Origin: a virus
Length of the DNA: 64,000 nt
IMG/VR virus record: IMGVR_UViG_3300031823_000001
Location: 32,001 to 96,000 of that record
Strand: one strand, 5' to 3'
Below, one piece after another: positions 22,583-59,422 of the stretch. The notes below the pieces were generated by a model. The model was not told where the DNA came from. It was given only the letters and a program-made list of their open reading frames with translations, and made no database searches. The position numbers and the translations under genes are program-made. Within the stretch, counting starts at the first letter, position 1, and the number at the start of each line of letters is the position of its first letter.

Positions 22583-22779
22583 CAGAACTCACCCGCTAGC
22601 AGCCGCGCGATCGTCTCGCGGGTCAGTTCCCCGGACTCGCGGTAGATGCGGTCGAGTTCCTTCCGCTGGGACGGCAGCATCGTCGGCAGCGGGAGGATGA
22701 TCGACTCCAGGGTGTAGAGGCTGGCTATGTCGTCGGCCCAGTCGTCCGGGTCGCTTAGTACGGGATCGGCGGCTGCCAC
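22579..22779 (-). CDS. hypothetical protein
   Basis: GTG start; GTGA coupling. Confidence 0.55.
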   Translation of the reverse strand: MAAADPVLSDPDDWADDIASLYTLESIILPLPTMLPSQRKELDRIYRESGELTRETIARLLAGEFW

Positions 22780-23294
22780 GGAGTCCCCTTGTGATCGTGG
22801 GTCTTGAGCTTGCAGTCGATCGTCTTGCAGCTCCGGGTCCGATCACAGATACGGCAGACTCGCTGGCCGTTCTTCGCGATCCGGGTGGTGCTCCGGGTGA
22901 ACTTGTGGCCCCACCGGCAATTGGTCTTCGATCCGTTGTGATGGCGGCCGTGCCTGACAGTGTCCCTCTTGTTCGCGGAGTAAGTCTTCCAGAAGAGGTT
23001 CTCCAGGCGGCAGTTCTCCTTGTTGCCGTCGTCGTGCGCTCCCTCGCAGCCGCGAGGGCACTTGCCGCGAAAGGCAGTCAGCACCAGTACGTGGACCCGG
23101 TGGTGGGTGTGCTTTCCCTCCTTGGAGAGGGTGACCATCAGATAGCCGTTGGGGTCCCGGCGCGGGCGGATGATGCGCCCTCTGGTGGTGGCACGGGGAA
23201 GACTGTGCACGCGTCCGTCGTCGGACACCAGGTAGAGCCCTTCGAAGTCCGGAACCGGAGCCCACTTGCCCTCAGGTAGCTGAAGATCAGTCAT
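22755..23294 (-). CDS. NUMOD4-HNH homing endonuclease
   Basis: W.PVPDFEGLY.VSD.GRV (NUMOD4); VH.LVL.AF.G...H.DGNKEN..LENL.W.T...N; C-terminal C..GH...C..C. Confidence 0.9.
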   Translation of the reverse strand: MTDLQLPEGKWAPVPDFEGLYLVSDDGRVHSLPRATTRGRIIRPRRDPNGYLMVTLSKEGKHTHHRVHVLVLTAFRGKCPRGCEGAHDDGNKENCRLENLFWKTYSANKRDTVRHGRHHNGSKTNCRWGHKFTRSTTRIAKNGQRVCRICDRTRSCKTIDCKLKTHDHKGTPWQPPIPY

Positions 23295-28669: not shown

Positions 28670-29026
28670 ATGAAGGAAATGAATCTCAGCAAGACGACCG
28701 TGAAGATCATAGATATCTTCCTGGAGGACCCGCAGGCGCCCCGGTACGGGTTCGAGCTGATGAAGCGCATCCACCGGGGCGCCGGCACGGTGTACCCGAT
28801 CCTCGCGGACCTGACGTCAGCCGGATGGCTGGACCGGAACCGGGAGGACGCCGCAGCCCTGGACAGGCCGCCGCGCATCTACTACACGCTCAGCGCCGGG
28901 GCAGCGGCCTACCTGGCCGCCCGGGTCATAGCGATGGCCGGAGACTCAACAGCGGAACACCAGGCGGCCCGAGCCGGAATCGAACCGGCGCCCTACCGCT
29001 TAGGAGGCGGTCGCTCTCTCCCCTGA
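28670..29026 (+). CDS. PadR-family transcriptional regulator
   Basis: YGFELMK.....GTVYPILADL...GWL...RIYYTLS; TACACT -10 six nt before ATG. Confidence 0.85.
   Translation: MKEMNLSKTTVKIIDIFLEDPQAPRYGFELMKRIHRGAGTVYPILADLTSAGWLDRNREDAAALDRPPRIYYTLSAGAAAYLAARVIAMAGDSTAEHQAARAGIEPAPYRLGGGRSLP
28945..28960. repeat. 3' arm of a 16-bp inverted repeat bracketing the tRNA array (partner 36635-36650)
   Basis: CTCAACAGCGGAACAC is the exact reverse complement of 36635-36650. Confidence 0.85.
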
Positions 29027-29037
29027 GCTACCGGGCC
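28965..29037 (-). tRNA. tRNA-Arg(CCT)
   Basis: cloverleaf; loop ctCCTaa. Confidence 0.9.
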
Positions 29038-29186
29038 ATGAGGTAAGCAGTAATCCATGCGAGCACCGAGACGACGGCAGCGAGAACGCACACCAGTTGG
29101 TACCCGTACATGCCCATGACGGCAGACGTAGCGGCGGAAGCCGACCCGGTGAAGACATAGGACACTACCTGCTGGAGCTTGTTCAC
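29028..29186 (-). CDS. possible 52-aa two-TM peptide inside the tRNA array
   Basis: GTG-start ORF, strongly hydrophobic; no clear SD. Confidence 0.35.
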   Translation of the reverse strand: MNKLQQVVSYVFTGSASAATSAVMGMYGYQLVCVLAAVVSVLAWITAYLMAR

Positions 29187-29200
29187 AGTGCTGATCGTAG

Positions 29201-29272
29201 AGGCGGAACGGGGGATCGAACCCCGGTAATGCGCTTTGCAGGCGCATGCCTGAACCACTCGGCCATACCGCC
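29201..29272 (-). tRNA. tRNA-Cys(GCA)
   Basis: cloverleaf; ctGCAaa; U73. Confidence 0.9.
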
Positions 29273-29412
29273 GTGGGTGCTCCCCCGTCCTATCCGCCAG
29301 GACCGGGGCCCTGGTTTTCCCTTCATCCGGCCATAGCATGTCTGAAAGCTTCGGGGACTGCTCAGGGGGCTGTTGTAACCGGGGTTGGACTACCGGCGAC
29401 CTGGGGTGCACG

Positions 29413-29486
29413 TGCGCCTGGAGGGACTTGAACCCCCGGCCTCGCCCTCCGGAGGGGCGCGCTCTTTCCTGCTGAGCTACGGGCGC
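29413..29486 (-). tRNA. tRNA-Arg(CCG)
   Basis: cloverleaf; ctCCGga. Confidence 0.9.
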
Positions 29487-29487
29487 A

Positions 29488-29574
29488 TGGAGGCGACACC
29501 TGGTGCCGGCCCAGGTCTGTCCGCGAGGACGGCGGATTTACAGTCCGCTGGGCGTGCTGCCGCCCACTGCCGCC
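29488..29574 (-). tRNA. tRNA-Tyr(GTA), atypical T and D loops
   Basis: ctGTAaa; long variable arm; CCA encoded; T-loop GCCGGCA. Confidence 0.75.
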
Positions 29575-29577
29575 ATT

Positions 29578-29739
29578 TGGCGCGAGCCCCTGGATTCTGC
29601 CAGGACTCCTCCGGGTGGAACCGGAGCGTGCTGTCCGGGGACGTTATCCATGGTTTCGTCCCCTTCGCATCGAGGTCCCTGTCCAGTCAGGCCCGTGCGC
29701 ACGGACCTGGCCGGAGCCGGCCTCTTACACCAGACTCGC
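29578..29739 (-). ncRNA. tRNA-like RNA with about 95-nt structured insertion in the D-loop
   Basis: acceptor GCGAGTC/GGCTCGC plus G-CCA; D-stem GTGT/GCAC; anticodon-like arm CTCCGG-TTCCAC-CCGGAG; T-like arm CCTGG-CAGAAT-CCAGG. Confidence 0.6.
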
Positions 29740-29740
29740 G

Positions 29741-29813
29741 TAGGCAATGACGGACTTGAACCGCCGACCTCTCCGGTGTGAACGGAGCGCTCTTCCAACT
29801 GAGCTAATCGCCC
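29741..29813 (-). tRNA. tRNA-Val(CAC)
   Basis: cloverleaf; ttCACac. Confidence 0.9.
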
Positions 29814-29814
29814 T

Positions 29815-29891
29815 TGGGGTGAATGACGAGGCTTGAACTCGCGACCTCCGGTACCACAAACCGGCGCTCTGCCGACTGAGCTACACCCACC
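29815..29891 (-). tRNA. tRNA-His(GTG)
   Basis: G-1, C73, CCA; ttGTGgt. Confidence 0.9.
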
Positions 29892-29950
29892 ATGAGGACG
29901 ACGGGGGACTGAGCCCGAAGGCGGTGTCAGCCTGCTCACCTGTCGTCCAG

Positions 29951-30023
29951 TGCGGGCGGAGGGACTCGAACCCCCAACACGATGCTCCGTAGGCACCAGC
30001 TCTATCCATTGAGCTACGTCCGC
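29951..30023 (-). tRNA. tRNA-Arg(ACG)
   Basis: cloverleaf; ctACGga. Confidence 0.9.
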
Positions 30024-30061
30024 ATTAACGGGGCGGTCCCCAGGTGCCGCCGGGGACCGCT

Positions 30062-30140
30062 AAGAGGAGGCAGGGCTCGAACCTGCAATGCGTGGGCTGG
30101 CATCCCGCGCGCCAACGTCTACCAATTCCGCCACTCCTCA
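30062..30140 (-). ncRNA. atypical tRNA-like RNA (Leu-type D arm, extended anticodon stem, loop atGCCag)
   Basis: canonical T-arm GCAGG-TTCGAGC-CCTGC; 6-bp acceptor; irregular D/anticodon junction. Confidence 0.55.
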
Positions 30141-30144
30141 CCCG

Positions 30145-30217
30145 TGGGCGTACCTGGGATCGAACCAGGGACCTCTTCCGTGTCAGGGAAACGCGCGTTC
30201 CGCTGCGCTACACGCCC
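30145..30217 (-). tRNA. tRNA-Val(GAC)
   Basis: cloverleaf; ctGACac. Confidence 0.9.
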
Positions 30218-30299
30218 AGATACCGCAGCCTGTTCAGTCTCAGGTCCGTCCCCGGAGGGATGCGAGTCCCGGGCCTAGGCCCGGGAGGTCGCTGCGGCG

Positions 30300-30373
30300 C
30301 GGTCGTGACGGGACTCGAACCCGCGATCTCCTCCTTGACAGGGAGGTGAGCACTCCGTCTGCTCTGCACAACC
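30300..30373 (-). tRNA. tRNA-Asp(GTC)
   Basis: cloverleaf; ctGTCaa. Confidence 0.9.
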
Positions 30374-30450
30374 ATGCCTGCTGCACCTTGGCGTCGGTGC
30401 TTCCCTCCCCGGACGGCCCGGGTGGTGTCGGAGCGTGCAGGACCGCTCGG

Positions 30451-30522
30451 CTCCGGTACCTGGACTCGAACCAGGAGGCGCGGATTAACAGTCCGCTCGT
30501 TTACCGATTAACGGACACCGGA
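30451..30522 (-). tRNA. tRNA-Asn(GTT)
   Basis: cloverleaf; ctGTTaa. Confidence 0.88.
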
Positions 30523-30703
30523 ATGGTTCCCCGCTTCCGGTCAGCAGTGCGGGGAGAACTGCGTTCCGAAGACCACCGGGAGCGACCCGGTGCCGACCTT
30601 GCCCTTTCTGAGAGCCGGCCGGGCCAGGGCCGGTGGACGGCCAGGCGGTAGCGTTCTGCCTCCCTTACACCCGGGCGTAAAGGCGCTAGGCCTGTCTCTC
30701 TCG

Positions 30704-30776
30704 TAGCGGAGGCAGGACTTGAACCTGCGACCTCTGGGTTATGAGCCCAGCGAGCTACCGGCTGCTCCACTCCGCG
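30704..30776 (-). tRNA. initiator tRNA-fMet(CAT)
   Basis: 1:72 mismatch; three G-C pairs in anticodon stem. Confidence 0.9.
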
Positions 30777-30891
30777 TCGTGCTCCCAGGGTATCCCGGGA
30801 GGTATCTGTCTCGCACCTGCGAATTTCAGCCCACCAGTGCAAGCGCCCGGATGCCGTAAGAGGGCCGTCCTCTCGCTCCGGCATCCCCAGG

Positions 30892-30963
30892 TGGCCCCAG
30901 ACGGTTCCGACCCGTCTTCTCCTGCTTGAAAGGCAAGCGGCCTAGCCATTGGCCGATGGGGTC
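30892..30963 (-). tRNA. tRNA-Glu(TTC), atypical T-loop
   Basis: ctTTCaa; T-loop GTCGGAA. Confidence 0.8.
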
Positions 30964-31009
30964 TAGAATGTTACTCGCCGAGTCGGCTGACAACACCTAT
31001 ACTTAATTC

Positions 31010-31414
31010 ATGAACACCACCACTCAAGGAGAAATAAGCGAAGGCCACGTCATCGCGCACCTACTGAAGCGCGGCTACGCCGTGTCCATACCATTCGGTA
31101 ACAACCAGCGATATGACCTTGTAATCGATGACGGAAGCCATTTGTGGCGAGCCCAGACAAAAACAGCTCGGCTAGAAAAGGGCTGCCTGGTGTTCAATTG
31201 CAGCAATAACGGATACAAGGGCGTACGCAAGACGTATCAGGGGCAGATCGACCTCTTCCTGATCTACAGCCCACACACAGATAAGGTCTATCGGGTACCC
31301 ATCGAAGCAGCTACTGTCACGTCGATGATGCTGCGTATCGACCCGACCAGGGCAGGGAGCCCCAAGTCACCGAAGCATCCGATCAAGTGGGCTAGCGACT
31401 ACGAGCTGACCTGA
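31010..31414 (+). CDS. PD-(D/E)XK homing endonuclease of the I-Ssp6803I-like family
   Basis: T..QGEISE..V...L...GY.VS.PFG...RYDL......RAQTKT motif; low GC; TATACT -10, leaderless. Confidence 0.85.
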   Translation: MNTTTQGEISEGHVIAHLLKRGYAVSIPFGNNQRYDLVIDDGSHLWRAQTKTARLEKGCLVFNCSNNGYKGVRKTYQGQIDLFLIYSPHTDKVYRVPIEAATVTSMMLRIDPTRAGSPKSPKHPIKWASDYELT

Positions 31415-31415
31415 G

Positions 31416-31490
31416 TGGTCCCGACGGGATTCGAACCCGTGTCAGTTGGTTGAGAACCAACCATCCTGAACCTGACTAGACGACAGGACC
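31416..31490 (-). tRNA. tRNA-Glu(CTC)
   Basis: cloverleaf; ttCTCaa. Confidence 0.9.
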
Positions 31491-31578
31491 ATGTTCCGCA
31501 CGGCTTGACCGACCGCCGGAGAGCACCCGGGGCTAGCAACCGGGTTCACGGGGCCGTCTTTAAGCGCGGCCGTTCAAG

Positions 31579-31651
31579 TGCGCCATGAGGGTCTCGAACC
31601 CTCGGCCAGCCCCTTAGAAGGAGGCTGCTCTGTCCGCTGAGCTAATGGCGC
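31579..31651 (-). tRNA. tRNA-Arg(TCT)
   Basis: cloverleaf; ctTCTaa. Confidence 0.9.
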
Positions 31652-31660
31652 AGATGCTAG

Positions 31661-31733
31661 TGGGCCGCCAGGGGATCGAACCCTGAACCCGTCGGTTAAA
31701 AGCCGACAACTCTGCCGATTGAGTTAGCGGCCC
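31661..31733 (-). tRNA. tRNA-Lys(TTT)
   Basis: cloverleaf; ctTTTaa. Confidence 0.9.
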
Positions 31734-31784
31734 GCGATCGGTATTCGCCGGGCCTGTTTCTCGTACATGTTTTCTCCGTCCCGG

Positions 31785-31857
31785 TGGGCCGTGTACGGAT
31801 TGAACGCACGACTCTCACCTTATAAGGGTGCCACTCTTACCACTGAGTTAACGGCCC
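31785..31857 (-). tRNA. tRNA-Ile(TAT)
   Basis: cloverleaf; ctTATaa. Confidence 0.85.
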
Positions 31858-31862
31858 CTGAG

Positions 31863-31935
31863 TAGCGGTAGAGGGGATCGAACCCCCGACAACCCGATCA
31901 TGAGTCGGGCGCTCTGCCGACTGAGCTACACCGCC
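31863..31935 (-). tRNA. elongator tRNA-Met(CAT)
   Basis: cloverleaf; ctCATga; GGCGGTG acceptor. Confidence 0.85.
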
Positions 31936-32021
31936 ATGGCGCACCCGGGGTCCCTCACAGCCTCCTGGCGAGCCAGGCTGCCGACCTACCCATCCGGTCG
32001 TACCCTCCGCCGGGTGCACTG

Positions 32022-32095
32022 TGGGCGAAAGAGGAATTGAACCTCTGACCTCCCGGTTATCAGCCGGACGCTCTAACCAACTGAGCTACCCGCCC
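32022..32095 (-). tRNA. tRNA-Ile(GAT)
   Basis: cloverleaf; ctGATaa. Confidence 0.9.
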
Positions 32096-32106
32096 ATTTA
32101 CCTGCG

Positions 32107-32192
32107 CAGAGGATTGAGGTGCCGACCCCCACGGCCCTTCCGGACCGCCGCCGGTTTTCGAGACCGGATGCGCCGCCGGGCGCGAACCCTCC
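32107..32192 (-). tRNA. tRNA-Ser(CGA), atypical T and D loops
   Basis: ctCGAaa; long variable arm; T-loop GTCGGCA; 4-nt D-loop. Confidence 0.75.
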
Positions 32193-32277
32193 ACTATCTG
32201 CGGTCGCCCCTGGGAACGCTTTGCGGCCGGAGCCTTGCACGGGTCGCAGCACCCGTAGCGGGGAGTCGAACCCCACG

Positions 32278-32362
32278 CGGAGAGAGCGAGATTTGAACTC
32301 GCGAGGCGTTGCCACCAACACGCTTTCCAGGCGTGCGCCCTAGGCCACTAGGCGACCTCTCC
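32278..32362 (-). tRNA. tRNA-Ser(GGA)
   Basis: cloverleaf with variable arm; ctGGAaa. Confidence 0.9.
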
Positions 32363-32524
32363 ATGCACGGCCGGATGACCTCCCGGGTTTCCCCTCGGGG
32401 GCTCGCTCCCGCCTGCCGCTGCCTTGCCGCGCGTCAGCAGCAGCGCAGTCACGAGCTGGAAGGTCATCCAAGTGCCGGTCCCGGCTTCCGGTGTACCCAG
32501 GGTGGGAGCCTGCCGGGACCCGAG

Positions 32525-32609
32525 CGGAGGGAGCGAGATTCGAACTCGCGAGGGCGGACCCAACTGCATTAGCGGTGCAGCGCCATAGGCCGGACTAGGC
32601 GACCCCTCC
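32525..32609 (-). tRNA. tRNA-Ser(GCT), C33
   Basis: loop ccGCTaa; variable arm. Confidence 0.85.
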
Positions 32610-32710
32610 ATGTGCGCTGCTCCCCCAGATCCAGGCTCGGGGTGGTAGCTCCCCGGCATAGTCCTGGAGCGGAGCCGGGGTCGCCAGGGTGCCGCAGCGC
32701 GGGCACCCTG

Positions 32711-32797
32711 TGGTGGGCGAAGAGGGACTTGAACCCTCACATCCTTGCGGGATACACGGGCCTGAACCGTGCGCGTCTGCCGTTCCGCCACACGCCC
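32711..32797 (-). tRNA. tRNA-Leu(CAG)
   Basis: ttCAGgc; variable arm; CCA. Confidence 0.9.
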
Positions 32798-32915
32798 ATG
32801 GAGTGCTCCGCCAACCCGAAGCCCTCTTAGATCTAGCGTCTCGGCAACCGTCATCTCACCAGCCCGGAGACCTCGGGGCTGGCAGCTCGTGGAGCCTGGT
32901 GTGTTGGCGACGCTG

Positions 32916-32988
32916 AGCGGATAACCGGGTTCGAACCGGCGACATCCACCTTGGGAAGGTGGCGCTCTGCCTGCTGAGCTACATCCGC
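32916..32988 (-). tRNA. tRNA-Gly(CCC)
   Basis: ttCCCaa; U73. Confidence 0.9.
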
Positions 32989-33084
32989 ATGACCTGGGGT
33001 CCCCTTCAGGCCGCGTCCGGCCTCGGAGGGCGCTCTGTACCATGGCTCGGGCTTTGGGCCAGCAGAGGCGTGGTACCCCAGTTG

Positions 33085-33156
33085 AGCGGATAACGGGGAT
33101 CGAACCCGCGACCTACACCTTGGCAAGGTGTCGCGCTACCACTGCGCCACATCCGC
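33085..33156 (-). tRNA. tRNA-Gly(GCC)
   Basis: ttGCCaa; U73. Confidence 0.9.
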
Positions 33157-33168
33157 ATGCTTACTGCG

Positions 33169-33241
33169 AGCCCGGAGCCGGATTCGAACCGGCGACCTGC
33201 TCCCTACCATGGAGCCGCTCTGCCGCTGGAGCTATCCGGGC
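33169..33241 (-). tRNA. tRNA-Thr(GGT)
   Basis: atGGTag. Confidence 0.9.
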
Positions 33242-33252
33242 ATGTTCTTGCG

Positions 33253-33327
33253 CTGGGCGGCAGGGACTCGAACCCCGAACCTCCGGGACCAAAGCCCGGC
33301 GCTCTGCCAAAGTTGAGCTAACGCCCA
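33253..33327 (-). tRNA. tRNA-Gln(TTG)
   Basis: ctTTGgt; U1-A72, G73. Confidence 0.9.
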
Positions 33328-33332
33328 CTGTG

Positions 33333-33405
33333 AGCCGCCTAACGGATTCGAACCGATGACCCTCCGCTTACAAGGCGACTGCTCTTCCTGCTGAGCTAAG
33401 GCGGC
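33333..33405 (-). tRNA. tRNA-Thr(TGT)
   Basis: ctTGTaa. Confidence 0.88.
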
Positions 33406-33523
33406 GTAGTCCGGGGTACCCTCCCGGTCCAGGACAACCAAGTACCACAGGCACGATGTTCCACAAGCCTGCCGTCCCCGCTCTGCCGGGCTCATATACG
33501 TTTCGCCCGGTTTATCCTGCCCG

Positions 33524-33610
33524 TGTCCGAGGAGGGAATCGAACCCTCACGCCCGTGGGTATGGGCACTAGCACCTCAAGCTAGCGCGGCTGCCGTTACG
33601 CCACCCGGAC
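33524..33610 (-). tRNA. tRNA-Leu(GAG)
   Basis: ttGAGgt; variable arm. Confidence 0.9.
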
Positions 33611-33866
33611 ATAAGTCAGACCTACACCCGGGCCGTACTGCCCGGCATCCTTCTCCCGCTTGTCCAGGCTCGGCCTGGCGAGTTCGGGCAACCTAACGCG
33701 GCCCCGAGGGGTCTCCCCTGCCTCGGTCTGACGATCATGGTGACGGCCTCAGCCCTAGCCGCCACGGGAGCCCCGCCTGTACCTCGCTCCTTCTAACTGC
33801 CGGACGTTTCCACCCTCCGCTACCCGGACGTATCTGCAAGGCCGAAGCCCTCGGTGGGACACTACG

Positions 33867-33939
33867 AGCCCCGGAACGGAATCGAACCGTTGACCTCACC
33901 ATTACGAGTGGCGTGCTCTGCCATCTGAGCTACAGGGGC
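33867..33939 (-). tRNA. tRNA-Thr(CGT)
   Basis: ctCGTaa. Confidence 0.88.
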
Positions 33940-34016
33940 TGGATGCCGCGCTCGATCCGTCTAAGCTACCGGCCCACGGGCGGACCGGACGGGACTCGAA
34001 CCCGCCTCTACGGCTG
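33940..34016 (-). ncRNA. circularly permuted tRNA-like RNA (T arm, loop-closed acceptor, D arm; YrlA-like topology)
   Basis: GCCGT-AGAG-GCGGG TTCGAGT CCCGT-CCGGTCC gcccgt GGGCCGG-TA-GCTT agacggatc GAGC-GCGGC-atcca. Confidence 0.7.
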
Positions 34017-34092
34017 CTGGGGTACCAGGTCTCGAACCTGGAACCTCGGGCACCAGACGCCCGCGCTCTGCCATTGATTGAGCTATACCCCA
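34017..34092 (-). tRNA. tRNA-Gln(CTG)
   Basis: gtCTGgt; U1-A72, G73. Confidence 0.88.
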
Positions 34093-34119
34093 ATGCGGCG
34101 TTTACCGTCTGCCGTGGAC

Positions 34120-34203
34120 TGGTGGGCAAGGAGGGGGTCGAACCCTCATGTCGAAGACACCGGGACTTGAGGCCGGCGCGTCTGCCTGTTCCGCCACTCG
34201 CCC
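34120..34203 (-). tRNA. tRNA-Leu(CAA)
   Basis: ctCAAgt; variable arm; CCA. Confidence 0.88.
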
Positions 34204-34395
34204 AGAGATTGCGGGGCCTGGCCGCCTTCCCCTTGCCAGCTCAGCGGCCAGGCCCGTGTGGACGGGGACCTGCCGCGAGTCCTGCCTGAGGCCTGAGCAC
34301 CGTCGCCCCACGGCCTGGAACCCTGCCGCACGGGTCTCCTCGCGGGTGGCCCGCGCCGCCCATCAGGAAGATACAGCATTTCAAGCCAGCTCGCG

Positions 34396-34468
34396 TGCGC
34401 CGTGAGGGACTCGAACCCCCGGCCCGCTGATTAAGAGTCAGCAACTCTACCGACTGAGTTAACGGCGC
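34396..34468 (-). tRNA. tRNA-Lys(CTT)
   Basis: ctCTTaa. Confidence 0.9.
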
Positions 34469-34469
34469 C

Positions 34470-34543
34470 TGGAGCGGATGACGGGAGTCGAACCCGCGTG
34501 ACCAGCTTGGAAGGCTGGGGCTCTGCCACTGAGCTACGTCCGC
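34470..34543 (-). tRNA. tRNA-Gly(TCC)
   Basis: ctTCCaa; CCA. Confidence 0.9.
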
Positions 34544-34678
34544 ATGTGCCAATTCCACGGCAGTCCTTCATGACGGAACTGCCTCCCTTAACGCAGGGGT
34601 CACAGGCAACCTTCGCGCCCGGGAGCACTTCACCCCGGGCTGCCGCGATGATCCTGAGTGCACCAGGTCGCTGCATCG

Positions 34679-34735
34679 CACGGTCCCGGGGTTCGAACCC
34701 GGCTCGGCCCGTAGGCCTGGCGTCCCGCCGACCGC
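34679..34735 (-). ncRNA. miniature anticodon-less tRNA-like cloverleaf
   Basis: GCGGTC/GACCGT stem; GGCG-gga-CGCC; GGCC-tacg-GGCC; canonical T-arm CCGGG-TTCGAAC-CCCGG. Confidence 0.5.
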
Positions 34736-34792
34736 TTTTCCGCCCGGGGCGCTTACCGGGCGGTCCAGGTGACGTCCGTACGCCTGTCACCG

Positions 34793-34866
34793 TGGTCACA
34801 GGGGCGATCGAATCCCCGGCCTGTCCCTTTTCAGGGGACCGCTCGTACCGTCTGAGCTATGTGACC
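34793..34866 (-). tRNA. tRNA-Phe(GAA)
   Basis: ctGAAaa. Confidence 0.9.
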
Positions 34867-34871
34867 TTGAG

Positions 34872-34981
34872 TAGCGCCCCGGGGGTCGAGCCCGGCCCTG
34901 GGCGAGTGACCACCGCAGGTGCCCGGTTACCCCGGGCCTGCGGCGTCCGCCCGCCCTGTGCGTGCCACCACACCAAGCGCG
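34872..34981 (-). ncRNA. tRNA-like RNA with greatly extended anticodon arm
   Basis: GCGCT/GGCGC acceptor; TG-GTGT..GCAC D-arm; about 60-nt rod; T-arm CCGGG-CTCGACC-CCCGG. Confidence 0.5.
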
Positions 34982-35031
34982 GTACGCGGGTTGCGGTCCC
35001 GCGCTCCGGTGACCCCTGGCCTGGGGTCCCG

Positions 35032-35106
<75 letters not shown>

Positions 35107-35216
35107 TTGAAAGGCAGTGCACCCGGGAAAGCTGCGGGGTACCCCGCGAACCCGGGACATGCGTCCATGCTTCGGCCGACCACCTGGTTCGTCCAGATTC
35201 CTGCCTCGGCACTGCC

Positions 35217-35291
35217 TGGTCGGGATAGCAGGGGTCGAACCTGCCGCCCCCCGGCCCCCAGCCGGGTGCGCTACCGCTGCGCCATATCCCG
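35217..35291 (-). tRNA. tRNA-Pro(GGG)
   Basis: ctGGGgg; CCA. Confidence 0.88.
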
Positions 35292-35574
35292 AAGCGAATC
35301 CCTGGCAGGGCGTGGCCCTTCACTACCGCCGCACTTACGCCGGGGATTCTGTTTGCTCGGTGCCAGGCCCTAGCGTCGCGATCACTTCCTGGTCACCTGC
35401 ACGGTACTGCCGGACGGCTCTCGCCTCCCCGTGCTGTGGATGCGCCTGCCCTTTTATGAGTCCCCGGCAGGTACAGGGAGGTTAACGCCGCCCACCCGGC
35501 CGCCGCATGGCAACCAGGACTACTCCCCCTTGCGCGAGAGGGCTTCGGGGGCTGCGCAAGCCCCAGGCGACTCG

Positions 35575-35645
35575 TCGGGACAGCCGGGAACGAGCCGGCA
35601 CCTTCCTGCTTCCAGAGCAGGGGCTCTGCATTGAGCTACATCCCG
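35575..35645 (-). tRNA. tRNA-Pro(TGG), atypical or degenerate
   Basis: loop tcTGGaa (C33, A37); T-loop CTCGTTC; D-loop lacks GG; stems intact. Confidence 0.65.
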
Positions 35646-35750
35646 TCACCCGCGTCCGGAAGCCGTTATCCGGTTATGCATTCGGGCTCGCGGCGCCCGC
35701 CCGGCATCCTCCAGCGCTGAGCCTAGGATTCGCGCTGGCAATCACCAAGG

Positions 35751-35824
35751 TGGAGAAGAGGGGACTCGAACCCCTGACAACCCGGTTGCGGGCCGGGTGC
35801 TCTGCCAGACTGAGCTACATCCCC
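35751..35824 (-). tRNA. tRNA-Ala(CGC), C33
   Basis: G3:U70; loop ccCGCaa. Confidence 0.85.
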
Positions 35825-36169
35825 AGGTACGCCGACGCGACTGTCTCCCGACGTGGTGCGACGCCGCTGACGTTTGGCTAAGGCAGTCAGCTAGCCCGGT
35901 ATAAGCCGGAAGCAGGCAGAGACCCCGCTGACAGGCGGAGGCGGCACCGTCGCGCCGCCCTGGTCTCCCGAAGAAGTCAAGCGCCCGGATCGCTCTCGGA
36001 CCTGCCTACGGACCTCGCTTGGCTAAAGAACATCTTCGTTGCCTTCCAACTAGTATCGGCTTCCGGCCGATCACGGCAGTGCTCTCGCGTTTGGTTACGG
36101 TTCGCCGCACCCGCTGTTGAGCTATGCCCCCTCAGGGGCACCCGGTCTGGGGCCGGGATCGCTGCCTCG

Positions 36170-36242
36170 TGGAGCCTATCGGATTCGAACCGATGACCTT
36201 CTCCATGCCATGGAGACGCGCTACCAACTGCGCTAAGGCCCC
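36170..36242 (-). tRNA. tRNA-Ala(GGC)
   Basis: G3:U70; atGGCat. Confidence 0.9.
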
Positions 36243-36634
36243 ATTGGAGCCGCCCCCACGGTCGCCGGGTAGCCACGAGGGCAGCCGGGCGCGAGGGCGG
36301 ACTCACTGATCCCTAAGATCCTGACGGCCGAGGCCCGGCGCATCCCGCTGGTGTGAACAGCGGGCCGCCTTATCCTCGAAGTGGATACCGCAGCGAGCAT
36401 CGGGATTCTAGCTGGCGAGGTGCCCGGTACAGGACCGTCTTGCGACAGCCCCAGCCTTTAACGGCTGCTGCTCCCCGGGAGTAGCTGCATTGTCTTTCAC
36501 CACGCCGAAATCTGAGCGACCGAGGAGTACCCGCCGGTTTGTTTCATGACTCCACCAGACGGTAAGTGTCCGTAGGTCTCCTAGCCCGGACGGGTCCCCG
36601 GTCGCTGGCGGCAGGTTGGCACCCTGCCGCATTC

Positions 36635-36650
36635 GTGTTCCGCTGTTGAG
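36635..36650. repeat. 5' arm of the 16-bp inverted repeat bracketing the tRNA array
   Basis: GTGTTCCGCTGTTGAG; partner 28945-28960. Confidence 0.85.
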
Positions 36651-36726
36651 ATGTCAAATATCGAGCCGGTTACCGTCCTCGGGGCTCTCGCCCGTCGGCC
36701 GGTGGCTGTAGGACCTTGCGGTCCAG

Positions 36727-36798
36727 CAGGGACGGAGGGGCTCGAACCCCCGGCACGCGGCTTTGGAGACCGCTGCTCTACCACTGAGCTACATCCCT
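36727..36798 (-). tRNA. tRNA-Trp(CCA)
   Basis: ctCCAaa; G73. Confidence 0.9.
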
Positions 36799-42245: not shown

Positions 42246-42565
42246 GATTCCTCCTGGCCGGCGGCGAACCGGGACCTGATCCTGGTGCGGATCTCCCGCG
42301 AATCCATTACCTGCTGCCCGGCTTCCCGCCAGGTGACAGGGACGGCCCCGGCCTTTATGGCGGCGAGGCGCTTGGACTCGGTGACGTCGTAGTGCTGCAT
42401 GGGCCAGGGCTTGTCCTGGAACCAGGAGCGGTGCAGCCCGATCTTCGCGGCGAGGGCGTGCAGTTCCTCGATGTCGTCGTCGGGCCCGACGGTGAGGTGG
42501 GACCAGCGGGCGGTGATGCGGCCGACGGTGGCCTTCTGCCGCCAGTCGTCTACGTAGACGGTCAT
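42242..42565 (-). CDS. DUF4031 family protein
   Basis: MTVYVD...WSHL...EELHA.A..IGL.RSWFQ....HYDVT..KR. Confidence 0.8.
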   Translation of the reverse strand: MTVYVDDWRQKATVGRITARWSHLTVGPDDDIEELHALAAKIGLHRSWFQDKPWPMQHYDVTESKRLAAIKAGAVPVTWREAGQQVMDSREIRTRIRSRFAAGQEES

Positions 42566-43440
42566 GATTCCTCCTGGTCGGTGACGTGGGCGTAGGAACG
42601 GCGGCTGAGGATATTGCCGAGGGCGGCTTCCTTGATGCCGAAGCGCCCGGCTAGAACGGAGCGCTTCATTCCCTCGGCCCCGAGCCGCCGGATCTCGCGG
42701 ATCTGCTCGTCCGTGAACCGCGCATCGCTGCGGCGCGAGCGTGCCTTCGGCATGTCCCGGCAGATGATCGAGATGTTCGAGTGGTGAACGCCGAACTGCA
42801 ACCCGAGTTCGTGGATGCTCTTCCCCTCGGCTCGCAGGCGCCTGATCTCTGCGGCTTGAGGTGCGGTGAGCTTCCCGCCTGACATGCGGCGCTCGTGGGG
42901 AGCGATCGGCGGAGGATCGGTGATCCATCCCCAGCTCTTGCCCGAGAGCGCGAGCTGGACAGTGTCGAGCTTGCGGTCCAGTTCGGCGGCGATCTTCGGC
43001 GCACTCAGGCCGCCCCGGTAGAGAGTGCGGGCCTTGCGCACTAGGTCGGGACTCAGTGCGTCCTGGCCGCCGATCCCGAGAGACCGGCGCCTGATCGCCT
43101 TGTCGCGGTTATTGTCCGCGACGCTCCCGTCCCTGATGTGCAGCGGACGGCAGCAGGGCGGGTTGTCGCAGTCATGCCTTCCGATCACCGGCATGTACCC
43201 GTGCACCAGGTAGAAGGCGACTCTCTGGGCGTTGACTGTTCCCTTGCGTCCGGTGAGCGGGTTGATCATGCTGACGGCCCCGTAGTTCCCTCTCGGGCGC
43301 TTCCGGGTGGCTCTGAGGAACTCCCAGCAGGACTCGTCGTCGTCGATGATGTTGACCTTCGGCCAAAACTGCCTGTCGGGACCGGGAAGAGTTGTGAGCT
43401 GGCCGTCTCGGAGGACCTGCTCGTACTCGATGATGTTCAC
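42562..43440 (-). CDS. HNH homing endonuclease with C-terminal HTH repeats
   Basis: FW.KV...CWE; RH.CDNP.CC.P.H...G...DN..D; three HTH-like repeats; TAGTAT -10, leaderless GTG. Confidence 0.88.
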   Translation of the reverse strand: MNIIEYEQVLRDGQLTTLPGPDRQFWPKVNIIDDDESCWEFLRATRKRPRGNYGAVSMINPLTGRKGTVNAQRVAFYLVHGYMPVIGRHDCDNPPCCRPLHIRDGSVADNNRDKAIRRRSLGIGGQDALSPDLVRKARTLYRGGLSAPKIAAELDRKLDTVQLALSGKSWGWITDPPPIAPHERRMSGGKLTAPQAAEIRRLRAEGKSIHELGLQFGVHHSNISIICRDMPKARSRRSDARFTDEQIREIRRLGAEGMKRSVLAGRFGIKEAALGNILSRRSYAHVTDQEES

Positions 43441-43499
43441 GAACCCAATACTATCTTGCGAGAGATGGTGTGGCGCGAGGAACGTCCAGAGAGGGGGTG

Positions 43500-44059
43500 G
43501 TGACCACGGCCTCCACGCAAGCGAGAGTAGTCGGATCAGGCTACACTGTGCTGTCATACAACAGCCAGCCTATCGCTTACTGTGAGGGCTGGTTAATTGT
43601 GAGGATAGTGGGCAACGCGCTTTCAGCGATGTCGGCCAGCCTTATCAATTCATCCAGCCCATTGGTGCCGAGCACCCGGTCGAGATTGCCACGTCGCGCG
43701 TGATCTCCGGCGGCACGGTGATGATCACCATCCGCGAGTTGTGGAACCAGCCCGTGTGGTGGCAGCTCGCCGGGCTGACCGGCACCTGGGACATGGTGGA
43801 CATCTTCACCGCCCTGGCGGCCAACCCTAACTACGTCACCGCGTCGATGATTATCAAGCCGCCCGGTACGGAAAGCAACTCGGGTTCCTGGCGAGGCAAG
43901 GTATACCAGAACGTGACAGTCGTAGACATTAACGACGGCGAAACGGTTACCGTCGGGGCTCTGGCGGTCACTAAGGGTATTACCTTCGCGTACACCCACT
44001 ACGTGCCCCTCAACAGCAACCAGTACGGCGCTGGCCTGCTGGGAACCGCCACCGCCTGA
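43500..44059 (+). CDS. tail tube protein, split by an 8-nt insert (43593-43600); about 183 aa if bypassed
   Basis: frame 1 ...IAYCEGW then TTA; second frame EDSGQRAFSDVGQPYQFIQP...RELWN; follows sheath. Confidence 0.8.
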
Positions 44060-44159
44060 TCCCGGGACAATGCCAGCATTACCAAGGAACCTGGTATTCC
44101 TTCTGGTGCCGATGATAAAATTCCTCTTTGCCTGCCAAGGTAAAGCACAAGGAGGAAAA

Positions 44160-44495
44160 GTGGCGCAGAAGGTACAAGTTGACCAGGTAAGCGACCTGGA
44201 CGGGGTGCCGGCCGACGAGACAGTGAAGTTCTCCCTGGACACCACCGACTACGAGATCGACCTGTCCGCTGTCCAGGCGCAGGAGATGCGCGCCGGGCTG
44301 GCCCCGTTCGTGACGCATGCCCGGAAGCGGCCCGGCCGCCCGCGACGCGGCAAGCGGCGGCCCAGCCGCCCCGACCTGCCGGACATCCGCACGTACGCCA
44401 GGGCCAGGGGATACGACATCAACGAGCGGGGCCGCGTCCCCACCCAGATCATCGACGAGTACGACGCGCTGAAGGGCACCGACGCCGCCCGGTAA
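44160..44495 (+). CDS. lsr2: Lsr2 nucleoid-associated protein
   Basis: MAQKV....DLDG..ADETV.F.LD..YEIDLS; IR..AR..G..INERGRVP. Confidence 0.92.
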   Translation: MAQKVQVDQVSDLDGVPADETVKFSLDTTDYEIDLSAVQAQEMRAGLAPFVTHARKRPGRPRRGKRRPSRPDLPDIRTYARARGYDINERGRVPTQIIDEYDALKGTDAAR

Positions 44496-50672: not shown

Positions 50673-50740
50673 GCTGAGATTATAGCTTTTCTTGATAATC
50701 GCCCGCTACCCCTTAACCCCCGGAAGCAGCGGAGGTGCTC

Positions 50741-51349
50741 ATGGGAACGGCGACGCTCGGCTACCCGAACGGCCCCTCGGTGGCGTTCAGGATCGACCCT
50801 GACCTCATCGACTGGACGTGGGCCGTGCAGACGAACGTAGTAGAGACCATCGGCGGCCGGGTGATCCAGGTCCTCGGCGCGTCCCTGGACGACCTTACCG
50901 TCCAGGGCAGCCTCGGCCAGGACCACGCGGACAAGGTCACCGGGGAGAGCTGGCAGCAGGCCCAGGCGTTCCTCACCACCGTCACCGCGATCATGGAGCA
51001 GCAGGCCTCCGACGCCACCACGAACGCCCTGATGCACCCCCCGGCGGTGTTCACCTACCCGCCGAAGGGCTGGCGGTGGAACGTCTACGTCAAGTCGCTG
51101 ACCGACCCCGACGGGAGCAGCTCGGTCATCCTCAAGCCGGGCAAGGTAAACCAGCGCTACGTGCTGACCCTGTTCATCGTCAACGAGAGCGCGAGCCTGA
51201 CGGCCGCCGGGACCACGGCCAACGGCGCGCTCGCCCAGCAGTCAACCCTGGCGATCTCCCAGTTCATGGCCAGGATCAGCGACGGCGTCGGGTGGACGGC
51301 CAACAAGTACACCGGCATCTACACCGGCAGCACGCCGCCCGGCACCTGA
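50741..51349 (+). CDS. baseplate / tube-initiator type protein
   Basis: F.IDP..I.W...T.V.ETIGGRV.Q.LG; tail operon position. Confidence 0.65.
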   Translation: MGTATLGYPNGPSVAFRIDPDLIDWTWAVQTNVVETIGGRVIQVLGASLDDLTVQGSLGQDHADKVTGESWQQAQAFLTTVTAIMEQQASDATTNALMHPPAVFTYPPKGWRWNVYVKSLTDPDGSSSVILKPGKVNQRYVLTLFIVNESASLTAAGTTANGALAQQSTLAISQFMARISDGVGWTANKYTGIYTGSTPPGT

Positions 51350-57038: not shown

Positions 57039-57551
57039 CTAGGACGGCAGCGGGTTGAGGTAGGCGTGCTCTCCGAACAGCTCCAGGGCAGCCTCGTTGT
57101 AGGCGCGGGCGCAGGCTTCCTGGCTGTCCGAGTGCAGGATGGTCCGAGTCTTTCCTTTTATGGTGATGCGGGCGCGCCACTTATTCATCTGCTTGTCCCA
57201 TCCGACCCCCTTGTACTTAGAGGTGTGCCGCGTAAGGTCCGGTCTTCTGTTCTTGTCATTGTGCAGGCCGTCGCGCAGGTTGCGGCGGCGGTTGTCCAGC
57301 GTGTCATGGAAGATGTGATCCGTGCGCGGGTATCCGGTGATCATCGAGTGCATGGAGATGATCTTGTAACCTCCGCCGATCTGACGGATGGCGGTGCGAG
57401 CGTACGGCCCGTTGGTACGTCCGTTGCGCTTGATTTCAAGCACGTGTCACCTGTGCCTGATGACCAGCTCGTAATCTTCGACGTCGATTCGTGCGACTCT
57501 CCCGGCTGCCTTCTTGCCGGACAGGGGAACCTCGATATGCGCCGTCGCCAA
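57039..57551 (-). pseudogene. HNH-AP2 homing endonuclease with internal TGA (57447-57449)
   Basis: GGAGG plus TTG start; ...DYELVIRHR*HV...; DH...DTLDNRR.NLR; AP2 SKYKGV.W....KW.ARI...ARAYN.AA..LFGEHA.LN. Confidence 0.8.
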
Positions 57552-57594
57552 TGGTGGGCCTCCGTGCTCATCGTCTCTAAGGGGGTGATGCACC

Positions 57595-59422
57595 TTGGCA
57601 AGCCAGTCTGATATTTCATCTCAGATCATCTCGGTCCTGGCGGCTAGCGAACCTGACCTTGACACCACCGTCGGTTCCGTGACCCGCAAGATCATCGACG
57701 CAGTTGCAGCTTCGATCTCAACTGCTTCGCTGGACCAGCAGATGTTGGCTTATCAATTAGCAATACGATATCAACTCGATGACCGGCGCCGCGCTCGACT
57801 CTTTCGTCCAGCTTTTCGGGATGTCCCGCTACCCGGCCACCCGGGCGGTCGGCACGGTTTCCTTCACCCGGGGCACCGCTGTCGATACCGCGACGGTCCC
57901 CTCCGGCCTCCAGATCGCCTCCGAAGACGGGTCGGTGGTAGCCGTCACCCTGACCGCCGTGATTCTCGACCCGGCGGCACTGAGCGGCACCGCGCCCGTC
58001 CAGGTGGTCACCGCCGGCCCGCAGGGCAACGTCGCCACCGGGACTCTCACACAGGTCCAGAGCCCGGTCGCCGAGATCACCGCCTGCACCAACGTCACCC
58101 CGCTGACCGGGGGGGCCAACCAGGAGACCGACACCCAGCTCCAGGCCCGGTGGAAGGCGACCGTCTTCAAGTCCATGGCCGGGACCAGCCAGATGTTCAT
58201 CGGCATCGCGACCAACGACCCGGACTGCACCGCCGCCAACGTGGTGGACGGGGCGACGAGGTTCCGCGAGCAGGTCCAGATCGCCAGCGGCGCGGCCACC
58301 TCCACGGTCTCCGACGCCCAGTACACCTACCCGTCGGGCCAGGTGGTCGGCCGGGACATCGACAACGGGGACGTCGCCGCGCCGGGCACCCAGTACATCT
58401 GGGACTACACAGCCGACCCGCCCTCGATCTCTGTCATCGACGCGAGCTACTTCCCCAACGCCGAGCTGGTTGACCTGTCGTTCCTCTACATGGACACCTA
58501 CTCGCGCAATTCGGCCGCCGCAGGGATCTACAGCCGGGTGGACGTCTGGTGCGCCGGCAGCCGCCCGGCGGCGGCTTCTGCGACGGTCAACTACCACAAC
58601 GCCACCACGTTCTCCAGCACCACCACCTCAAACTGGTACACGGGGGGCTTCGTGCGGCCCGACGGCACCGCGCCGGCCACGGGGAACGTCTTCGTCGCGC
58701 TGCCCTGGGGGCCGATCGTCACCCTGCCGCCGGTTCTGGTAGTCAACGGCGTCACCTACGGCCTGGCCACCCCCGTCTACCCGCTCGGCTCGGTGTCCGG
58801 CGGGGTCACCTACGCCTACCAGATCGTGCACCGCACCGGGGCGTTCGGCTGGAGCCCGTACTCTGACTTCGGCCTTGAGTGGGACGCTGCCTACCAGCCG
58901 CCCTCAGGGTCCGCGATCACCCTGAGCGAGAACTACACCTACAACAACGTCCCGGCCGCCATCCAGGCGGACCTGGAGAACTGGCGGCTGGCCGGCCAGG
59001 ACGTCCTCGCCCACCAGGGCATCCCGGTTTCCCTCCAGTTCTCCCTCGCGGTCATCTTCGACCCGAGCGTCACCCAGTCGGTCACCCAGACCTCGATCAA
59101 CACCAGCCTCCAGACCTATCTGTCGCAGCTCGGGTTCAACTCGCGGATCTACCCCTCCAGCGTCATCCAGGCAGTGGAGAGCACCCCGGGCGTCATCGCC
59201 TCCCGGTTCCTCACCGGGGCCGACTACCCCGCCTGGAACTCTGCGGCCCCCGACAACTTCAATGTCGGCATCCAGCAGGTCTACGAGGGCGTGGTGGCAC
59301 AGAGCTACGTGGACAGCGGGGGCAACCCGGTAGACGTCGCCCTCGGTGCGGCCCAGCTCCCGACGTTCGGCGGCGCGGTCGTCGTGCCGAAGGCTGGTAA
59401 CACCATGGGGCCGTTCAGCTAG
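57595..59422 (+). CDS. baseplate J-like protein, split by a 7-nt insert (57757-57763); about 606 aa if bypassed
   Basis: frame 1 ...DLDTTVGSVTRKIID...MLAYQ then TTA; second frame YDINSMTGAALD..VQLFG..R..AT.A.G.V.F; GG...ETD..L..R. Confidence 0.85.

Follow-up and report, generated by a model that had tools for sequence, protein, structure and literature searches.

Candidate UUA-triggered translational bypass of a short, nuclease-linked insert in a phage baseplate J gene

The baseplate J gene of an uncultivated virus carries a 7-nt insert that breaks its reading frame. The sequence evidence makes it probable that the full-length J protein is produced by a hop of peptidyl-tRNA-Gln from one CAA codon to the next while the ribosome is stalled at UUA. 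We examined a 64,000-nt stretch of IMG/VR record IMGVR_UViG_3300031823_000001 (positions 32,001 to 96,000), hereafter the window, to whose first letter all coordinates refer unless another genome or contig is named. Direct observation covers the insert itself, its absence from relatives, its linkage to a nuclease gene, selection on the coding segments on both sides, and a grammar common to eight inserts. From these we infer the hop and slow decoding of UUA in whichever host the phage infects. The genome is complete with terminal repeats, yet two of its virion genes are interrupted in this way.

The insert site in baseplate J

Read directly, the insert site is TAT (57751-57753), CAA (57754-57756), TTA (57757-57759), G (57760), CAA (57761-57763), and TAC (57764-57766), followed by GAT and ATC. 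An earlier note on this DNA had described this CAA-TTA-G-CAA arrangement at 57751-57766, and its letters and coordinates are exact. Segment 1 of the gene (57595-57756, plus strand) comprises 54 codons, from a TTG start to the take-off CAA at 57754-57756, and is 94% identical to residues 1-54 of a 606-aa homologue (P0003). The 7-nt non-coding insert (57757-57763, plus strand) contains a zero-frame TTA (57757-57759), a +1-frame TAG (57758-57760), and the landing CAA (57761-57763). Segment 2 (57764-59422, plus strand) extends from the resume codon TAC at 57764 to a stop codon at 59420-59422 and is 97% identical to P0003. It belongs to the Pfam family Baseplate_J (PF04865), with a profile match of 93 bits against a curated cut-off of 21 (E = 2e-26). 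The protein also shows ~29% identity to the baseplate J/wedge proteins of Mycobacterium phage Myrna and of Gordonia phages. The phage group comprises ~160-kb myophages known only from soil metagenomes, and its nearest cultured relatives are cluster-C-like mycobacteriophages (~29% identity).

When the first CAA is joined to TAC 57764, the two segments give 54 + 552 = 606 aa. This confirms the length that the earlier note had derived from a 7-nt skip, and it is the length of most homologues among the best 120 listed, a few of which have 546-548 aa. Decoding of TTA in the zero frame leads instead into a 292-aa off-frame ORF (57595-58473), again as the note had stated. The downstream frame is closed by TAG at 57758-57760 and then opens with CAA at 57761-57763; a simple +1 slip would therefore end at once, which the note had also claimed. 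Contig comparison indicates that the insert is not an assembly error: the contig from the source run itself is identical, and the insert recurs without gaps in an independent soil contig from 2024. In a pattern scan of viral contigs, the exact insert context was found nowhere besides the window's own record.

Intact relatives have no extra nucleotides at this position. We fetched 67 baseplate J loci and measured the distance between the equivalents of codon 54 and codon 55. The gap at the YQ/YD junction is 0 in all intact loci (46 distinct contigs), most of which read TAC-CAG-TAC-GAC there. The two closest among the homologues listed (97% and 92% identical) read QQML-S-YQ/YDINSM, ungapped. Since intact relatives read YQ/YD without a gap, the window carries 7 extra nt. 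The earlier note had proposed checking that homologues read Y-Q-Y-D-I continuously, and they do so with no extra residue.

Inserts of 5, 7, or 8 nt occur at the baseplate J site in seven independent contigs. The 7-nt window form, CAA-TTAG-CAA, is the same in contig L003 and is also found in the 2024 soil contig. L001 and L002 have CAA-TTAG-CAG (7 nt), L004 has CAA-TTAAG-CAG (8 nt), and L110 has CAG-TTAAT-AAG (8 nt), where the landing codon is a 2-of-3 match. The remaining type, ACT-TT-ACC in L109 (5 nt), lies two codons upstream of the other J inserts. Four of the five insert types end in a codon cognate to the take-off tRNA, and the fifth ends in one that matches at 2 of 3 positions. A common origin is probable for the three CAA-type alleles, which would leave ~5 independent events rather than 8.

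If the stretch from TTA through the last triplet of the insert is skipped, each allele yields the exact homologue sequence. Some of the inserts displace the frame by +1, others by +2. Because these offsets differ, no single frameshift fits, and only a hop restores the protein in all alleles. This lends sequence-based support to the matched CAA-to-CAA hop of peptidyl-tRNA-Gln proposed in the earlier note: a hop would rescue the 5-, 7-, and 8-nt alleles alike, which a +1 slip cannot do. The “547-aa” J proteins are artefacts that arise where gene callers meet the same kind of break.

The region upstream of the insert is under strong constraint. Among insert alleles, the 54 N-terminal codons have a dS of 0.23-0.58 and a dN of 0.017, giving a dN/dS of 0.03-0.07. 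This strong purifying selection suggests that these codons are translated and needed. In their C-terminal part, the insert-bearing alleles are 59-97% identical.

Homing-endonuclease genes and a second interrupted gene

An HNH homing-endonuclease gene with an AP2-type DNA-binding end lies directly upstream of J, on the minus strand and divergent from it (57039-57593). It matches PHROG 99 (E = 1e-24) when read through with TGA as tryptophan. An in-frame TGA at 57447-57449 interrupts the gene, where L003 has TGG, and the window copy is probably a decaying homing-endonuclease gene. Intact phages have a baseplate-W-like gene immediately next to J, separated from it by -5 to 26 nt, whereas in the window 558 nt encoding the HNH protein lie between the two. 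The HNH block is missing from the closest intact relative, L013, and one soil contig without the homing-endonuclease gene lacks both the block and the 7 nt.

Nuclease linkage holds across the allelic series. Of the seven insert alleles, six come with a nuclease gene or its remnant, against none of 42 intact W-J junctions (Fisher p = 5e-7). The HNH gene of L004 and L109 belongs to another family (NUMOD4 + HNH_3) and lies on the other strand. L001 retains only a 150-nt nuclease remnant and has kept its 7-nt insert, and L110 has no nuclease gene. A tRNA-Met(CAT) gene occupies the corresponding interval of L110 (354-428 of that contig, opposite strand), between the W-like gene and the insert-bearing J, where other alleles have the nuclease gene. 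We also considered the 550-680-nt W-J spacers of distant relatives as possible nuclease genes; these were rejected, as they encode a Pro/Ser/Thr-rich membrane-type ORF and not an HNH protein.

Together with the nuclease gene, the window carries an AT-rich, synonymously recoded 5' tract of J (57595-57775, plus strand), whose right edge lies ~12 nt past the insert and which we regard as part of the same cassette. Its GC content is 0.54, against 0.71 in the next 600 nt. Relative to L013, 29 of 39 synonymous sites differ in the first ~58 J codons, with 3 amino acid changes; the differences are thus mostly silent, and they enrich for AT. Judged by eye, the flanking W gene and the part of J after the insert are much closer to L013 than is the recoded tract. 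By analogy with what has been proposed for T4 MobA and gene 60, the insert and the recoded tract might disrupt the nuclease target and so protect the allele that carries them. Three further loci (L005/L056 and L019) have an intact J and no nuclease gene, and show an AT-rich synonymous patch (TAC-CAA-TAT-GAT-ATT-AAT) at codons 53-59, exactly the insert site. These may be nuclease-resistant alleles or relics of a cassette.

A putative tail-tube gene in the window has the same kind of interruption and is, on its sequence, the strongest single argument for recoding in this phage. Segment 1 (43500-43592, plus strand) consists of 31 codons, from a GTG start to the take-off TGG at 43590-43592. An 8-nt insert follows (43593-43600, plus strand), containing a zero-frame TTA, a +1-frame TAA, and the landing triplet TGT, so that the site reads TGG-TTAAT-TGT-GAG (43590-43603). 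Segment 2 (43601-44059, plus strand) matches PHROG 2756, a virion structural protein, and the gene lies downstream of the tail sheath gene. Four intact relatives read CEGW/EDSGQ across the junction, while in a fifth, G005, the site holds a 7-nt insert (TGG-TTAA-TGC). The landing triplet TGT is only a 2-of-3 match to TGG.

Segment 2 of the tube gene has no ATG, GTG, or TTG until the GTG at 43700, that is, none for 33 codons. Compared with relative G001, these first 33 codons encode identical amino acids while 20.5 of 22.8 synonymous sites (~90%) differ. Because 33 conserved codons lack any start codon, ribosomes must enter segment 2 from upstream. An HNH homing-endonuclease gene with HTH domains (42562-43443, minus strand; Pfam HNH_3 + HTH_38, PHROG 59/1872) stands head-to-head with the tube gene, and G005 has its orthologue in the corresponding position. 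The tube gene is followed directly by a gene for an Lsr2-like nucleoid-associated protein (44070-44492; PHROG 1223, E = 3e-21).

A third HNH gene (NUMOD4/HNH_3-like; 22755-23294, minus strand) lies in a ~1-kb block that does not align to four related genomes. We found no broken neighbouring gene adjacent to it, and a short open frame immediately after it might represent the fragment of a gene. An in-frame TTA near this nuclease gene (window ~22424) was discarded, as it lies in a wrongly called ORF.

The UUA codon, the hop and its alternatives

TTA is exceptionally scarce in this genome, accounting for 26 of 42,799 codons (0.06%) in crude gene calls. A zero-frame TTA nevertheless opens all eight frame-breaking inserts found in the phage group, as well as both phiHau3 sites. 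That so rare a codon stands first in all eight inserts suggests a pattern beyond chance. In well-aligned coding DNA of five complete genomes, the isolated indels whose length is not a multiple of 3 proved to be these TTA sites; the raw blastn indel list was too noisy until it was limited to isolated gaps. A looser, protein-based tblastn screen for frame-split genes in the five genomes, most of whose matches were false and came from wrong-frame ORFs, added a TT site and one exception.

The added site is a 2-nt insert at ~119123 of G005 (CTC-TT-ACC), in a conserved 204-aa virion-module gene homologous to window 50735-51349; there is no nuclease gene near it. Its sequence, CTC-TTA-CC, would be compatible with +2 re-pairing from CUC to CUU at UUA. 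The exception, at ~105860 of G005, lies in the homologue of the large ORF that starts at window 60229. It is a 1-nt frame break in a G or G/C run with no TTA, the sole non-TTA break found, and is probably a sequencing error or a true mutation.

The phage encodes a tRNA that could perform the hop. A tRNA-Gln(UUG) gene (33252-33327, minus strand; ARAGORN) reads the take-off CAA and can pair with either CAA or CAG at landing. In J, every insert with CAA or CAG as landing codon has CAA as its take-off codon, the pairs being CAA to CAA in the window and CAA to CAG in L001 and L004. This gene belongs to an array at 28963-36798 that comprises 40 genes with 38 anticodons and includes both Gln tRNAs. 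The 40-gene set is without Leu(UAA), Leu(UAG), Tyr, Ala(UGC), Val(UAC), and Ser(UGA) tRNAs. The missing tRNA-Leu(UAA) was initially taken as strong support for stalling at UUA; it was downgraded since the other five are also missing. The relative G005 has one tRNA only.

We found no sign of a structural signal at the J site, where the RNA of four alleles folds no better than shuffled sequences (z from -0.7 to +0.9) and where no Shine-Dalgarno-like element was found. Reference locus L070 was left out of the folding comparison. At the tube-gene site, a 5' hairpin has z = -2.0, which is partly dictated by coding.

We propose the following mechanism. The 7 nt at 57757-57763 would have entered baseplate J within a homing-endonuclease cassette made up of the HNH gene, a new ribosome-binding site, the AT-rich recoded 5' end, and the insert. 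During translation, peptidyl-tRNA-Gln(UUG) would occupy CAA 57754-57756 in the P site, with UUA in the A site. No leucine codon is rarer than UUA in this high-GC phage, and the same presumably holds in its host. The ribosome would wait at UUA, the peptidyl-tRNA would let go, and the mRNA would slide by 7 nt. The tRNA would then re-pair with CAA 57761-57763, and decoding would resume at TAC 57764 to give the full-length 606-aa J. Points against a hop are the landing codons in the tube gene and in L110, each only a 2-of-3 match, and the negative results for RNA structure and for a Shine-Dalgarno-like element at the J site. The earlier note contained neither the rare TTA as likely trigger, nor the phiHau3 precedent, nor the homing-endonuclease cassette.

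The main rival to the hop is a two-piece protein, in which a 54-aa N-terminal peptide with an off-frame tail and a 547-aa protein started at ATG 57779 assemble unjoined, like T4 gp39/gp60 or other nuclease-split phage genes. We regard this as unlikely overall, and plausible only for the 8- and 5-nt alleles. In those alleles, the zero-frame TGA overlaps the conserved ATG (ATGA), a classic coupling arrangement from which re-initiation could yield two pieces, so that the layout expected of a split gene is partly present there but not in the window. Also in favour of two pieces are the 547-aa products annotated by gene callers and the methionine at the 57779 position, which is conserved in intact homologues too; selection on the N-terminal codons is compatible with either model. 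Against two pieces, the zero frame runs to 292 aa in the window and in L001 and stops after 57 in L003, so that an N-terminal fragment would bear between 3 and 238 junk residues across alleles. No Shine-Dalgarno-like run occurs within 30 nt before the ATG in any allele, and the five codons between the landing site and the ATG still encode homologue-like residues. The 33 conserved, start-less codons of the tube gene would require recoding in any case. An independent start at ATG 57779 was the case that the earlier note had named as refuting the hop; with no such run before the ATG and with 54 N-terminal codons under purifying selection, we judge it unlikely.

Two other explanations are less likely still than the two-piece protein. 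The insert could be a repair scar that has inactivated J, in genomes that are defective or rescued through co-infection with intact relatives. In favour of this, a TGA also breaks the neighbouring nuclease gene of the window, and viability cannot be proven from metagenome assemblies. Such decay is nonetheless very improbable, given that the insert persists across alleles that are 59-97% identical in their C-terminal part with an upstream dN/dS of 0.03-0.07, that its variants keep the TTA/landing grammar, and that the genome is complete and shows such an insert in a second gene as well. The assembled contig of the source run also contains no insert-less variant, although contigs drop rare variants. 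It is similarly hard to credit another form of recoding, either a +1 frameshift slightly further downstream, which would give ~608 aa and so add two residues, or loss of the 7 nt at the RNA level. In the 7-nt alleles the frame would be recovered by a +1 shift after GCA, and the phiHau3 authors were at first unable to exclude +1 shifting (PMC10732093). However, the J site has no overlapping slippery sequence, its +1 frame is closed by TAG directly after the take-off codon, and the 8- and 5-nt sister alleles need +2 or -1, so that one shift could not serve every allele. The junction has the same length in all 46 intact loci, and there is no homopolymer for transcriptional slippage. The UUA-stalled hop remains our preferred reading.

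Relation to known bypass systems

To our knowledge, natural translational bypass is known from very few cases, of which those of one Streptomyces phage and phage T4 are the ones shown so far. The closest is that of Streptomyces phage phiHau3, for whose terminase UUA-triggered bypass of 7-10-nt inserts was proposed in 2013 (Smith et al. 2013 J Bacteriol 195:4924, as related in PMC10732093 and PMC5009743). In 2023, support including mass spectrometry was reported, from full-length protein in Streptomyces and from a peptide spanning the junction in E. coli (Antonov et al., PMC10732093). The StrepC.1 and S. catenulae prophages are reported to share this large-terminase UUA bypass (Smith et al. 2013; Antonov et al. 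2023). According to the 2023 study, a +1-frame stop in the gap doubled bypass efficiency, and the bypass may serve as a regulatory lysis/lysogeny sensor (PMC10732093). We read the phiHau3 terminase DNA (L111) directly and found GGC-TTACTCC-GGT and TCT-TTAACGG-TCC at its bypass sites (2599-2626 and 2909-2936): a take-off codon, TTA, four bases, and a synonymous landing codon. The phiHau3 HNH gene (gp1) lies 1.4 kb upstream of these sites and is not adjacent to them.

The present phage resembles phiHau3 in most respects. Both are high-GC actinophages in which an essential conserved gene has acquired a short, frame-breaking insert. In both, this non-3n insert is absent from homologues, which tolerate no extra residues, a zero-frame UUA directly follows the take-off codon, and a landing codon readable by the take-off tRNA stands just before the resume codon. 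The differences concern the genes (baseplate J, tail tube, and one unknown gene here; the terminase in phiHau3), the gaps (2, 5, 7, and 8 nt here; 7 and 10 in phiHau3), and the +1-frame stop, which occurs naturally inside the gap here, unlike in phiHau3. Furthermore, the inserts described here are tightly linked to homing endonucleases, which are unmentioned in PMC10732093. While the phiHau3 bypass has been read as a regulatory sensor, our data point to the footprint of a selfish element.

In its mobile-element context, the present system is closer to T4 gene 60, whose 50-nt bypass is carried by a MobA homing-endonuclease element (PMC5009743; Manning & Atkins, bioRxiv 10.1101/2022.08.31.505936). 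In both, an insert in an essential gene travels with an HNH-type homing endonuclease and the A-site codon is poorly decoded (presumably so in the present phage), some gene 60 relatives using a rare “hungry” codon. Nuclease co-inheritance is therefore common to both, whereas the ~50-nt gap starting with a stop codon (UAG) is replaced here by a 7-nt gap starting with a sense codon (UUA). Gene 60 also has RNA and peptide signals, and the J site differs from it in having no detectable take-off stem-loop and no known nascent-peptide signal, and in its target gene.

Two further systems share parts of this pattern, as they are described in PMC5009743. Short “stop-hops” and hungry-codon bypass in E. 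coli constructs (Weiss et al. 1987; Gallant & Lindsley) likewise involve re-pairing of peptidyl-tRNA nearby when the A-site codon is slow, over distances of a few nucleotides that include +2, +5, and +6. In that account, these events are synthetic or stress-induced and of low efficiency, whereas the virion proteins considered here would depend on such a hop in nature. The translational bypass elements (byps) of Magnusiomyces capitatus mitochondria (Lang et al. 2014) are similar in being many short mobile inserts in essential genes, with an unused A-site codon and, in some cases, 2-of-3 landings as in the tube gene. They differ in being mitochondrial, 27-55 nt long, and GC-rich, with no nuclease gene attached as far as that source describes them. 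We found no report in the literature of bypass in baseplate or tube genes, or of nuclease-linked UUA inserts.

The sequences are thus best described as candidates for bypass of the phiHau3 kind in new genes, in a gene-60-like mobile-element context that may explain where the inserts come from. The alleles form a natural series across two to three virion genes, in which the gap measures 2, 5, 7, or 8 nt, landing is cognate or a 2-of-3 match, and a nuclease gene is present or absent. The series amounts in effect to a mutational analysis, already in place, of the requirements for a short hop, and it suggests that the inserts originate from homing-endonuclease cassettes. It also carries a warning for annotators: where recoding is ignored in high-GC phages, baseplate J proteins of 547 aa and tube proteins of 119 aa are called as “truncated”, which is an artefact.

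A broader joint reading, which we put forward tentatively and with somewhat less than even confidence, is that UUA micro-bypass inserts are a general class of mobile-element footprints in actinophages. Homing endonucleases would plant a few bases in their own recognition site and thereby protect the carrier, and such inserts would survive only if they start with the host's scarcest codon and end in a codon that allows re-pairing. If this is true, the T4 gene 60 and phiHau3 paradigms would merge, and the phiHau3 “regulatory sensor” would be recast as a selfish-DNA scar. Virion genes of these phages would then depend on, and possibly be tuned by, the level of the host's rare tRNA-Leu(UAA).
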